Shown piece after piece: positions 21,540-24,150 of a stretch of 64,000 nucleotides of DNA (its first letter is position 1; the number at the start of each line of letters is the position of its first letter). Position numbers and translations under genes: made by a program. The notes beneath the pieces were generated by a model. The model saw only the letters and a list, made by a program, of their open reading frames with translations, made no database searches and was not told where the DNA came from. This DNA comes from Candidatus Woesearchaeota archaeon (GTDB lineage: Archaea; Nanobdellota; Nanobdellia; Woesearchaeales; JAFGPW01), in the NCBI GenBank assembly GCA_016935985.1, contig JAFGPW010000005.1, positions 46,815 to 110,814 of the forward strand, in the 5' to 3' direction.

Positions 21540-22880
21540 ATGACATCCAAGGAGAAGCTCGAGAAGGTCATGTACAGCTACACGGCCGAGACGAACCCGC
21601 TCGAGGACGAGAACAAGCTCCTGCGGGAGACGATCAACGGCCTGAAGAACGAGCTCGACCGCTACCGCCAGCCGCCGCTCATGGTCTGCGAGGTGAAGGA
21701 GGCGTACCACGACAAGACCGCGCTCGTCAAGGTGCCGAACGGGAACGAGTTCTTCGTCACCGTCTCGCGCGAGTGCGGGCCCATCAAGGCCGGCGACTCG
21801 GTACTCGCCGAGCAGAAGAACCTCACCGTCGTCAAGAGGATCGACACGACGAAGAACTTCTCTGTCGAGCAGTTCGTGATCGTCGAGAAGCCGGATGTGT
21901 CCTGGGGCGATATCGGCGGCCTCGATGGGCAGGCTCGGGAGATCCAGGAGGTGATCGAGCTCCCGCTGAAGAACCCCGACCTCTTCAAGCGGGTCGGCAT
22001 CCAGCCGCCGAAGGGAATCCTCCTGTACGGGCCGCCGGGGACCGGCAAGACCCTGCTCGCGAAGGCGGTCGCCGCGTCGACGAACAGCACATTCATCGAG
22101 ATCGTCGGGTCTGAGCTCATCCAGAAGTTCATCGGCGAGGGAGCGAAGCTCGTGAAGGAGATCTTCCAGCTGGCTCGCGAGAAGGCGCCGTCCATCATCT
22201 TCATCGACGAGCTCGACGCGCTGGCGGCGCGGCGGATTGAGGTGGGGACCTCCGGCGAGCGCGAGGTGCAGCGGACGTTCATGCAGTTCCTCGCCGAGAT
22301 CGACGGGTTTAAGCACCTGGGCAACGTCAAGGTCATCGGCTGCACCAACAGGAAGGACATCCTCGACCCCGCTGTGCTGCGGCCGGGCAGGCTCGACCGG
22401 CTCATCCACGTCGACAACCCGAACAAGGAGGCACGCGAGCAGATCTTCATGATCCATACGAGGACCATGAACCTCGACAGGGACATCAGCCTGCCGAAGG
22501 TCCTCGCACGCATGGATGGGTTCTCAGGAGCTGAGGTGAAGGCGGCGTGCACCGAGGCAGGATACTTCGCGATCCGGCGCTACCAGGAGAGCGACTTTGA
22601 GGAGAGGCTCGTCGGCCTGAACAAGAAGATCAGGGAGTGCCAGGCCCAGCTGCGGGTCAGGATCGTCGAGAACCTGAAGGGTGTGACGAGGAGGCGGATG
22701 GAGGCGCAGCGCAGGGAGGTCGAGCGCAATCTCGAGCTGACCAAGAACCGCAAGTACCGCCTCCTCGCCCAGATGAAGAGGGGCATGGTCATCTCCGAGA
22801 AGGATATCCTCGACGGCATCGAGAAGGTCAAGCAGGAAGAGGAGCGTGAGGGGAAGGATTACCTGCGCATGTTCGGCTGA
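21540..22880 (+). CDS. pan: Proteasome-activating nucleotidase (PAN) with C-terminal insertion
   Basis: Coiled coil + PP + OB domain; GPPGTGKT, KFIGEG, FIDELD, REVQRT, RPGRLDR; ends MFG. Confidence 0.92.
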   Translation: MTSKEKLEKVMYSYTAETNPLEDENKLLRETINGLKNELDRYRQPPLMVCEVKEAYHDKTALVKVPNGNEFFVTVSRECGPIKAGDSVLAEQKNLTVVKRIDTTKNFSVEQFVIVEKPDVSWGDIGGLDGQAREIQEVIELPLKNPDLFKRVGIQPPKGILLYGPPGTGKTLLAKAVAASTNSTFIEIVGSELIQKFIGEGAKLVKEIFQLAREKAPSIIFIDELDALAARRIEVGTSGEREVQRTFMQFLAEIDGFKHLGNVKVIGCTNRKDILDPAVLRPGRLDRLIHVDNPNKEAREQIFMIHTRTMNLDRDISLPKVLARMDGFSGAEVKAACTEAGYFAIRRYQESDFEERLVGLNKKIRECQAQLRVRIVENLKGVTRRRMEAQRREVERNLELTKNRKYRLLAQMKRGMVISEKDILDGIEKVKQEEEREGKDYLRMFG

Positions 22881-22930
22881 CCGCCCGGCCGCAGCTATTG
22901 CTTTGGGAACCCGATCCGCAATGAGAAGAG

Positions 22931-23007
22931 GGTGTGTGCTCATAAGTTACTTCCGTTCGTCATCTCCCGAGGGATCCGTGGGTGTTCACTCAATCACCGC
23001 ACACACC
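22931..23007 (-). ncRNA. Box C/D guide sRNA, predicted to direct 23S Um2552
   Basis: 9-bp terminal stem GGUGUGUGC/GCACACACC; C=GUGAUUG with D=AUGA; D'=CGGA with C'=AUGACGA; D' guide GUGAACACCCA; own TATA box at 23029-23036. Confidence 0.8.
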
Positions 23008-23028
23008 GCAGGGAAGAATCGGGCGGCG

Positions 23029-23042
23029 TATATAAACCTTAT
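23029..23042 (-). promoter_or_regulatory. BRE/TATA promoter of the sRNA
   Basis: AAGGTTTATATA on the minus strand, TATA start ~29 nt before the stem start. Confidence 0.65.
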
Positions 23043-23056
23043 CCCTGACCCGCACA

Positions 23057-24082
23057 TCATCCGACGACGAGATCATAGCACACGCGGTAGGTGCGCGGCG
23101 ACTGCTGGCCGCACCGAGCCACGCGCCGCATCGAGCAGCTGACACCCGCCCTCTCCGCCTCCTCGCGGATCCGCGCCGCACCTGCTGTCATGATCTCGTC
23201 TTCGGGCAGGAACATGTAGAGATGGATGACCGTCCCCTTCCGGCTCGCCGCGAACGCGACGCCGAGGAAGTCCTCGGCATCCTTAGGCAGCGGCATGATG
23301 ATCCGGTCGAACGTCCGCCCGAGCCTCGGCACATAGTCGCGCGCGTCGCCGCAGTGCGGCGTTATGTTCGTGATCCTGTTCTCGGCGATGTTCTTCATGA
23401 GCAGCCGGATCGCGGCGGGGTTGATGTCGTTCGAGACTATCTCTGCCGCCGCAGTGTTCTTCGCGATCACGCAGTCATAAGGCCCGACGCCGCAGAACAT
23501 GTTGAGGATGCGCTCTCCGGGCTTGACCTGCGTATAGATGCGCTTGCGCTCGGTCGACAGCCGCGGCGAGAAGTACACCTCCGCGACATCAGCCCATATC
23601 CTGACGCCGTGCTCGCGGTGGAGCGCGAGCGTCTTCCTCTCGCCGGCGAGATGGACCATCCGCTGCACCCGACAAGGCCCTTCATGGGCGCCGCCTTTCC
23701 TGAGCACGGTGGCTATGGTTCGCTGCTCGGCGAGGAGCGCCTCCGCGATACCGCGCTCGCGCGGCACGAGCCTGTCAGGCACCTCGAGGATCGCGATGTC
23801 GCCGACGACATCGTACGCTGTCTTGAGGACCCGCCGCTCCGCCGGCGAGAGGGTGGCGGCGACGCGCTCCTTGAAGGACGTCCTCCGCGGCAGCCGCTCG
23901 AGACGGATGCGTGACGCCTTGACCTCAGGGAACCTGCGCCTCACCGACGCTGCGTCGGTCACCGCGAGGAGGACCGCATCCTGCGTGCTCCGCACGCGAT
24001 AGCCGCGATCGAGCAACCCTTCCCGGATGCAGAAGCCGCGCACCTCCTGCGCGAGCCTTTTCGGGACTGCGATTACTGCCAT
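23057..24082 (-). CDS. trm5: Trm5/Met-10 family tRNA methyltransferase
   Basis: YDVVGDIAI, HREHG, VYFSPRLSTER, MFCGVGPY, DINP.A, FDRIIMPLP. Confidence 0.88.
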   Translation of the reverse strand: MAVIAVPKRLAQEVRGFCIREGLLDRGYRVRSTQDAVLLAVTDAASVRRRFPEVKASRIRLERLPRRTSFKERVAATLSPAERRVLKTAYDVVGDIAILEVPDRLVPRERGIAEALLAEQRTIATVLRKGGAHEGPCRVQRMVHLAGERKTLALHREHGVRIWADVAEVYFSPRLSTERKRIYTQVKPGERILNMFCGVGPYDCVIAKNTAAAEIVSNDINPAAIRLLMKNIAENRITNITPHCGDARDYVPRLGRTFDRIIMPLPKDAEDFLGVAFAASRKGTVIHLYMFLPEDEIMTAGAARIREEAERAGVSCSMRRVARCGQQSPRTYRVCYDLVVG

Positions 24083-24150
24083 GAGGGACCGAAAGGCGGC
24101 CAGGGTATATAAATCCTGATATGATTGGAGCATACAAGGGGGTCGAGCCT

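Follow-up and report, generated by a model that had tools for sequence, protein, structure and literature searches.

RlmE (FtsJ/RrmJ) is a stand-alone 2'-O-methyltransferase that modifies U2552 of 23S ribosomal RNA (rRNA) with no guide RNA, and in yeast snR52 serves as the guide for methylation of the first A-loop nucleotide. Modification of the A-loop at U2552/G2553 is always present according to the available text of a 2021 review (PMC7994747), and the accessible part of Dennis et al. 2015 (PMC4644070) predicts methylation of the Escherichia coli U2552 equivalent, guided by small RNAs (sRNAs), in five of seven archaea, including Nanoarchaeum equitans. Here we analyze a 77-nt element on the minus strand of a 64,000-nt stretch of contig JAFGPW010000005.1 (contig C5 in our numbering) from a Candidatus Woesearchaeota archaeon; we call the whole of this stretch the window. 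We read the element as a genuine box C/D sRNA gene, and we consider it very probable that it encodes an archaeal box C/D sRNA with two guides in a DPANN archaeon of the Nanoarchaeota/Woesearchaeota type, likely from a TATA promoter of its own, and that this sRNA takes the place of RlmE. What carries this reading is the anatomy of the element, its conservation, the covariation of its stem and boxes, its complementarity to the organism's own A-loop, the covariation of the D guide with its target, the presence of the three core proteins of the ribonucleoprotein (RNP), and the anticorrelation with RlmE.

The closest described counterparts are two N. equitans sRNAs, sR10 and sR14, as reported in the available text of PMC4644070. 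Like the present sRNA, NeqsR10 is a DPANN box C/D sRNA; it has the same D' guide core, AGTGAACACCC, ahead of a D' box, and its predicted target is the same first A-loop nucleotide, E. coli U2552. In contrast to the present sRNA, NeqsR10 carries the canonical boxes GTGATGA and CTGA, its D'-C' linker is short and forms no hairpin, and its D guide, AAAATCCACACA, is unrelated to the present one; only the D' core is common to the two. NeqsR14 resembles the present sRNA on the other side: its D guide AAGGAGTAGCTG, which precedes CAGA, complements AGCUACUCC of the N. equitans 23S rRNA, the same site as the present D target, with the N+5 base (the fifth guide base upstream of the box) falling on the U equivalent to E. 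coli U2438. It differs in having canonical boxes, an uninterrupted duplex with no extra guide base, and no A-loop guide. Both targets, U2552 and U2438, therefore already have precedent in N. equitans, where the guides lie on separate RNAs, whereas here they lie on one (PMC4644070, available text).

The other archaeal U2552 sRNAs covered in that same text likewise direct methylation of the first A-loop nucleotide through fibrillarin, Nop5 and L7Ae (Snu13), though they belong to other lineages and we judge their likeness on the guide alone. RlmE shares with the present sRNA only its predicted product, Um2552 in the A-loop. In a limited search of titles and abstract openings in the open-access literature, we found no such sRNAs described in Woesearchaeota-type or DPANN archaea outside N. 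equitans.

Read as RNA, the element has guide spacers of 12 nt (C to D') and 13 nt (C' to D), in keeping with the ~12 nt usual for such guides, and this spacing is kept across the alignment of 49 homologous sequences described below. The terminal kink-turn has the GA dinucleotides of both boxes, C and D, together with a 9-bp closing stem; its departures from consensus fall at positions 6 and 7 of box C and position 1 of box D, and its 4b-4n pair is Watson-Crick in 47 of the 49 sequences. The internal motif is formed by CGGA and AUGACGA, with D'1 and C'6 paired in 48 of 49 and with a D'-C' linker hairpin that is 98% paired. Because the linker forms a hairpin, we regard the internal motif as a closed kink-turn rather than a K-loop. 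The parse of boxes and arms made in the first-pass annotation, which had read the element from the sequence without database searches, stands with a single change, in that the A after box C is now counted as part of the guide, giving the 12-nt D' spacer.

A structural descriptor requiring RTGA in C and C', nnGA in D and D', Watson-Crick 4b-4n pairs, spacers of 11-13 nt, and a stem no shorter than 4 bp found a single site in the 1.40-Mb genome, namely this element, and none in the reversed genome, which argues that the arrangement is more than chance. Looser genome-wide C/D scans were set aside, since they returned 615 sites vs 157 in the control, or 98 vs 10 without the stem requirement, and coding sequence dominated both. 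In Rfam 15, no family reached its gathering threshold anywhere in the window. The best match below threshold (E ≤ 10) was to sR1 (RF01152), at 10.1 bits vs a gathering threshold of 45 and E = 5.2; cmscan aligns C, D', C', and D, so the general box order is alike, but the present sRNA lies below the sR1 threshold and is a member of no Rfam 15 family. The earlier expectation that consensus-based scanners would miss the element thus agrees with the failure of every Rfam 15 model to detect it.

We searched the intergenic region with blastn against 60 same-order genomes, one per family, and obtained matches at E<1e-3 in 18. Most of these extend over the sRNA but leave out its flanks; the two weakest are limited to the 3' part of the sRNA (the C' box and D guide). 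A covariance model (CM), R1, was then built from a MAFFT alignment (A1) of 27 sequences, comprising 26 relatives' copies and the window copy. CM R1 detected the sRNA in 130 of the 151 genomes sampled from the order (100 of the 115 high-quality ones), mostly as a single copy, and also in five genomes that carry the label of the same class and a different order. In the organism's own genome, CM R1 at E ≤ 10 gave only the element itself and no paralogue. The R1 tally, like the fibrillarin tally below, includes an unpublished genome (G131), and the RlmE tally includes another (G111); no conclusion rests on either.

A second alignment (A2) of 49 sequences fitted to the model was used for the analysis of covariation. 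All 16 modelled pairs show changes on both sides, and 80.9% of cells are paired, whereas shuffling leaves 58.0%. The alignment has a covariation score of 0.605 vs 0.212 in shuffled alignments, with 0 of 500 shuffles reaching it and slid controls at or below 0.178; A1, aligned by MAFFT, is concordant (0.609 vs 0.243, 0 of 500 shuffles). All nine pairs of the terminal stem change on both sides, and the inner six are 80-100% paired. In the linker helix, helix 4, all three pairs change on both sides, and the loops are often of GNRA or UUCG type. The covariance search among relatives that the first-pass annotation had proposed has thus returned a conserved, covarying family.

Part of this covariation falls within the kink-turns themselves. 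In the kink-turn numbering given in the available text of PMC6009581, 1b.1n is the G.A pair and 2b.2n the A.G pair, position 5 of box C stands opposite position 2 of box D, and position 6 of box C opposite position 1. Among the 49 sequences, the C6-D1 pair (4b-4n) is UA in 28, GC in 11, CG in 8, and UC in 2, making U-A, and not the textbook G-C, the commonest state of this family. The C5.D2 position (3b.3n) is UU in 21, CG in 8, GC in 7, AU in 7, and UA, GU, and CA in 2 each. In the internal motif, C'6-D'1 (4b-4n) is GC in 25, UA in 15, AU in 6, CG in 2, and UC in 1, a standard pair in 48 of 49, and C'5.D'2 (3b.3n) is UU in 26, AU in 8, UA in 6, CG in 3, GC in 2, and one of four other combinations in the rest. 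The RUGA of box C is present in 48 of 49 sequences, and the GA cores are nearly invariant (48 of 49 for box C and 46-48 of 49 for box D). Since the same positions covary across homologues, the U-A of C/D and the C-G of C'/D' in the window copy are ordinary states of the family. The boxes had been described as doubly compensated on the basis of the one copy, and the 49 homologues show compensatory changes at those very positions. Across the family, then, the G.A pairs appear fixed and the 3b.3n and 4b-4n positions appear free to change as long as they remain paired. Variable kink-turn positions of this kind were already known in Pyrobaculum and Pyrococcus, where sRNAs have likewise been overlooked by models through non-canonical K-motifs, according to the available text of PMC6009581.

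For the D' guide, the organism's own 23S rRNA could be consulted. The whole-genome family search reported no 23S rRNA in its genome. The first 350 nt of contig C10 (L040:1-350) are nonetheless the 3' end of a 23S rRNA gene, the remaining rRNA operon being unassembled; we located this fragment by motif, and it matches positions 2634-2987 of Rfam RF02540 at 333.7 bits. The fragment begins CCAAGGGTGGGGGTGTTCACCCATC... and its A-loop carries GGGGTGTTCAC, so the D' guide pairs over 10 bp and places N+5 on U2552. Specifically, the guide GUGAACACCC pairs with GGGUGUUCAC of the organism's own A-loop at -19.3 kcal/mol, the D'-adjacent guide base opposing a G, and the fifth guide base upstream of D' (A 22983) facing the first U of UGUUC. 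The duplex thereby has the at least ~9 contiguous Watson-Crick pairs and the paired N+5 base expected of a guide and its target. The guide core GUGAACACC is invariant or nearly so in the 49 sequences, GGTGTTCAC stands at the A-loop site in all eight relatives' 23S rRNAs, and in all four relatives tested, each genome's own D' guide has its best 23S site in the A-loop. The pairing that the first-pass annotation had asked to see in this organism's 23S rRNA is therefore there, with N+5 on the first A-loop U. Alignment with an E. coli 23S rRNA likewise identifies this base as the first U of the A-loop. We take the name U2552 from the available text of PMC4644070 and from the names of the RlmE models, since the E. 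coli 23S record used here is one base short in this region and reads 2551.

The genome also encodes the proteins that such an RNA would require. It is 92% complete and consists of 10 contigs with 1.40 Mb and 62% G+C. Fibrillarin (263 bits) adjoins Nop5 (151.7 bits) on contig C4, and L7Ae is on contig C8 (93.3 bits), all three above their Pfam cut-offs. The nearest relatives of the fibrillarin among named records are those of Nanoarchaeota, Woesearchaeota, and Nanoarchaeia metagenome-assembled genomes, at 45-57% identity, which agrees with the DPANN setting presumed in the first-pass annotation. No RlmE turned up in this assembly, which is 92% complete: searches with the FtsJ and RlmE models reach no more than 22-29 bits over ~40 positions. 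For TIGR00438, the highest score, 27.7 bits over 40 positions, belongs to a 198-aa protein that is best assigned to the generic families Methyltransf_31, Methyltransf_25, and UbiE. Both checks suggested earlier, for the three core proteins and for the absence of rlmE, accordingly came out in favor of the sRNA, the latter to the extent that no RlmE is detectable by models.

If the sRNA replaces RlmE, the two should tend not to occur in the same genome. We counted as RlmE-like any full-length FtsJ-domain protein at E ≤ 1e-12 and found such proteins in 10 of the 151 genomes of the order. Two of the 10 were scanned with the RlmE equivalog models (TIGR00438) and matched over the full model length with 189-194 bits, short of the curated 300-bit cut-off. 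Among the genomes with an sRNA match, an RlmE-like protein is present in 2 and absent in 128; among those with no sRNA match, it is present in 8 and absent in 13 (Fisher p = 1.4e-6). The RlmE-like genome G096 has only a 27.9-bit sRNA match, whose D' guide is unrelated to the A-loop. Only two of the RlmE-like genomes, G013 and G142, come from one family. This near-exclusive distribution is the pattern predicted by the U2552 reading. Fibrillarin, for its part, was found in 140 of the 151 genomes, and the sRNA is absent from 8 of the 11 genomes without it vs 13 of the 140 with it (p = 4.7e-6). Among the 10 RlmE-like genomes, fibrillarin is missing from three and interrupted by an in-frame stop in a fourth, compared with 8 of the 141 others.

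Some individual genomes deserve mention in this connection. In G046, the fibrillarin match contains an in-frame TAG, an RlmE-like gene is present, and there is no sRNA match; its fibrillarin may be decaying. In-frame TGA codons occur in the fibrillarin matches of G057 and G104. In two very small genomes of family f18 (G017 and G144; 0.6-0.7 Mb, 98% and 91% complete), the order-wide searches detected neither the sRNA nor fibrillarin nor an RlmE-like gene.

The first-pass annotation had tentatively placed the target of the D guide near U2438 of the 23S rRNA, and the place was right, but the rRNA sequence it assumed, AAGUUACUUC, was not: the relatives read AAGUUACUCC, which means that pairing needs either an A.C mismatch or a bulged guide A. 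An uninterrupted target was dropped, as the matches listed for the genomes searched include no perfect complement outside sRNA genes. The best 23S site for the D guide is identical in all four relatives, AAAAGUUACUCCGG, with the guide A next to GG bulged and with duplex energies of -10.5 to -16.2 kcal/mol. By alignment, this target corresponds to about E. coli 2432-2445, with pairing over 2434-2444 and an A-U pair at N+5 on U2438. In the ungapped register, the window guide forms eight contiguous pairs followed by A.C, G-C, G.G, and C-G; with A 22952 bulged, it forms 8 + 3 pairs. Measured against the at least ~9 contiguous pairs expected, the D guide therefore has eight, then a mismatch or 1-nt bulge, then three more, with the N+5 A-U pair intact.

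Despite the interruption, the guide is highly conserved. Its CGG and AGUAACU segments are invariant or nearly so in the 49 sequences, and the single variable inner column is the proposed bulge position (A in 41, T in 7, G in 1), within a spacer of 13 nt vs 12 nt for D'. The extra base is itself polymorphic: there is none in G155 and G096, an A in G162 and G163, a U in G199, and two A in G083. Furthermore, the guide changes together with its target. The sRNAs of the sister order (G155, G162, G163, G199, and G242) carry GUAGCU, and the 23S rRNA reads AAAGCTACTCC (AGCTAC) in all three sister-order genomes with an assembled site. In the same order, where the guides carry GUAACU, seven of eight 23S rRNAs read AAAGTTACTCC (AGTTAC), and the eighth genome, G013, is without the exact 15-mer and also without the sRNA. 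This covariation of GUAACU/AGUUAC with GUAGCU/AGCUAC supports the predicted D target, and, together with the conserved guide flanks and the 13-nt spacer, it favors a real pairing in the bulged register.

Other targets for the D guide fared worse. With 21 of the organism's own transfer RNAs (tRNAs), called by ARAGORN, the best duplex had an energy of -9.1 kcal/mol over scattered pairs, and a tRNA target was rejected; this set is incomplete, as some tRNAs were clearly missed. A 16S rRNA target was rejected as well, since no site in the annotated 16S rRNA of four relatives beats the 23S site, the 16S of G018 and G022 being only partial. Separately, we noted a 131-nt tRNA match in the organism's own genome (C4:97317-97447, L041:818-948; Rfam tRNA, 39.5 bits) with no ARAGORN call, which by eye resembles tRNA-Ser(GCU) with a long variable arm and an intron of ~47 nt. 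The intron contains AAGTTACT, the 8-mer that also forms the core of the D-guide target, which we take as chance. In G016, a position ~780 nt upstream of the 16S rRNA gene (L048 ~722) is a 10-bp perfect complement to that genome's own D guide (-15.5 kcal/mol), and no other duplex of comparable strength was seen at any locus. The same genome has a second sRNA (L183, G016:C1:110554-110650), and G028 has as its sole match an sRNA (L184, G028:C1:428177-428269), each with the D guide ACGGAAGTAACTT, canonical boxes, and another D' guide. These two show that the U2438 guide also travels without the A-loop guide.

Transcription, RNP assembly, and both methylations are what we infer from these observations. 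The sRNA would be transcribed from its own TATA promoter, and its terminal C/D and internal C'/D' boxes would each fold into a kink-turn that keeps the tandem G.A pairs. L7Ae would bind the kink-turns, and Nop5 and fibrillarin would complete the RNP. The D' guide would pair with the A-loop (helix 92), placing fibrillarin on U2552, and the D guide would pair with 23S 2434-2444, ~114 nt upstream in domain V, placing a second fibrillarin on U2438 through a duplex in which one guide base is bulged or mismatched at position 9. Both predicted sites lie in the large rRNA's catalytic centre. The sRNA would in this way do in this order the job that RlmE does elsewhere. The Um2552 guide named in the first-pass annotation is thus supported by the organism's own A-loop pairing, its partner genes, and the covariation of the boxes, with the methylation itself a prediction.

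Several observations weigh against the proposal. On the D side, the organism's own 23S rRNA around 2434-2444 falls in the unassembled part. The perfect complement of the D guide, AAGUUACUUCCGU, has no site with at most two mismatches on the sense strand of eight relatives' 23S rRNAs, and in the organism's own genome it occurs only in the sRNA gene itself; in five genomes, the only exact D-guide match, among the matches listed, was in the sRNA gene of G028. The ungapped register, moreover, offers only 7-8 contiguous pairs. On the D' side, the duplex is just 8-9 bp in some relatives, e.g., G009 and G016. As for the distribution, G083 has RlmE and a strong sRNA together, G028 keeps the D guide beside another D' guide and has no RlmE, 13 genomes have neither sRNA nor RlmE, and because related genomes are non-independent, the Fisher p values overstate the association. 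Finally, the folding energy of the whole RNA is unremarkable (z = -1.16), the T-run downstream of the sRNA is weak in the window (CTCTTCTC), and the assembled contigs of two metatranscriptomes, from the study that supplied a source-like DNA run, include none over the sRNA within 22400-23600. The sole metatranscriptome contig that maps there spans 23162-23314, inside the Trm5 gene, and the second RNA run has no match at all, so we take these contigs as no evidence either way on transcription of the sRNA.

A rival reading gives the same RNP a different function. The particle could be mainly an rRNA folding chaperone whose guides hold 23S 2434-2444 and 2549-2558 of domain V together while the ribosome is assembled, with the D' site alone, or neither site, being methylated and the D guide serving for pairing only. 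In its favor, a single domain contains both target sites at a spacing of ~114 nt, most members have a break in the D duplex at guide position 9, and Pyrobaculum sRNAs show both conserved non-methylating pairings and paired guides within 100 nt (PMC6009581, available text). Nevertheless, the N+5 pair is Watson-Crick (A-U) at both sites, the D duplex is uninterrupted in G155, in G096, and in N. equitans sR14 (PMC4644070, available text), and the near-exclusivity with RlmE-like enzymes argues that Um2552 itself is selected. We consider this chaperone role unlikely next to guided methylation of U2552 and U2438.

The sRNA fills the gap between the ends of a Trm5/Tyw2-like gene and a PAN-type gene (Table 1), and this setting raises the question of whether it is an independent gene. 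It could instead be excised from the 3' untranslated tail of the Trm5/Tyw2 mRNA, given that it begins 49 nt past the Trm5 stop codon on the same strand and that 24 of 47 relatives' loci have a Trm5 homologue upstream, on the strand of the sRNA. The sRNA is, however, kept in the other 23 loci, where Trm5 is elsewhere or not within 1.5 kb, and the window, from a genome of 62% G+C, has a consensus TATA box at a suitable distance. An origin in the mRNA tail therefore seems very improbable. Synteny on the other side is kept to a similar degree, with the PAN gene downstream and convergent in 22 of the 47 loci. The TATA box claimed in the first-pass annotation is present at 23036-23029, and its role as a promoter is predicted. 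Counting both strands, the genome contains the 8-mer TTTATATA 161 times. A TATA-like word occurs at -45..-10 in 32 of the 49 aligned homologues, which is weak evidence because most of those genomes are A+T-rich.

The ATG in box D opens a 139-aa open reading frame (ORF), 22524-22943 on the minus strand, that passes antisense through the PAN ATPase gene and is almost certainly no gene. A chance arrangement of motifs or a part of this coding frame, with no RNA gene at all, is next to inconceivable, for although the boxes are short and degenerate, the ORF formally begins in box D, and Rfam sR1 gives only 10.1 bits, conservation in 130 of 151 genomes covers exactly the 77 nt and leaves out the flanks, all 16 modelled pairs have compensatory changes, and the ORF is antisense through the PAN gene.

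Table 1. Features of the box C/D sRNA and its surroundings, in window coordinates.
Feature	Position	Strand	Sequence and basis
Whole box C/D sRNA, 77 nt	22931..23007	-	CM R1, 88 bits, E 4.8e-22
5' arm of 9-bp terminal stem (C-stem of terminal kink-turn)	22999..23007	-	GGTGTGTGC; RNA GGUGUGUGC; fold
Unpaired G between 5' stem arm and box C		-	sequence
Box C	22991..22997	-	GUGAUUG (DNA GTGATTG); consensus RUGAUGA; position 6 = U, 7 = G
D' guide, 12 nt	22979..22990	-	AGTGAACACCCA; RNA AGUGAACACCCA; N+5 base A 22983, facing 23S U2552
Box D'	22975..22978	-	CGGA; consensus CUGA; position 2 = G, pairs with C5 of box C'
D'-C' linker	22964..22974	-	TCCCTCGGGAG; 3-bp hairpin with tetraloop (UCC-CUCG-GGA) and one free G
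Box C'	22957..22963	-	AUGACGA (DNA ATGACGA); position 5 = C
D guide, 13 nt	22944..22956	-	ACGGAAGTAACTT; RNA ACGGAAGUAACUU; N+5 base A 22948, facing U2438
Bulged or mismatched D-guide base	22952	-	A
Box D	22940..22943	-	AUGA (DNA ATGA); consensus CUGA; position 1 = A, pairs with U6 of box C
3' arm of terminal stem	22931..22939	-	GCACACACC; fold and covariation
TATA box of likely own promoter	23029..23036	-	TTTATATA; centred ~26 nt upstream of first stem base (23007)
Upstream neighbour, same strand: Trm5/Tyw2-type tRNA methyltransferase gene	23057..24133	-	Pfam PF02475, 141 bits
Convergent downstream neighbour: PAN-type proteasome-activating AAA ATPase gene	21540..22880	+	Pfam PF00004, 143 bits; PF16450

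With the targets already predicted in N. equitans, what is mildly new is the order-wide conservation of the sRNA, the covariation at 3b.3n and 4b-4n, the conserved interruption of the D duplex, and the near-exclusivity with RlmE, none of which overturns current understanding. The annotation of DPANN genomes gains a well-supported, order-wide C/D sRNA family that is invisible to Rfam models, and the family is a natural covariation data set for kink-turn rules. It also offers a clear comparative example in which guide RNA and protein enzyme stand in for one another at the universally conserved modification Um2552.

A bolder idea, which we offer as speculation and would not bet on, is that these reduced DPANN genomes keep the whole fibrillarin-Nop5 machinery largely for this one dual-guide RNA, such that lineages with RlmE lose the guide and often fibrillarin too, and that the extra D-spacer base is a tolerated, perhaps required, guide bulge. 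The standard model of the archaeal C/D RNP has a continuous duplex of at most 10 bp. A guide bulge, if true, would be a mode of substrate pairing outside that model.

Lastly, a DNA run of another study, with a different habitat label, contains an identical 213-nt contig over 22826-23038, the sRNA included, which points to a near-identical organism in that second data set.

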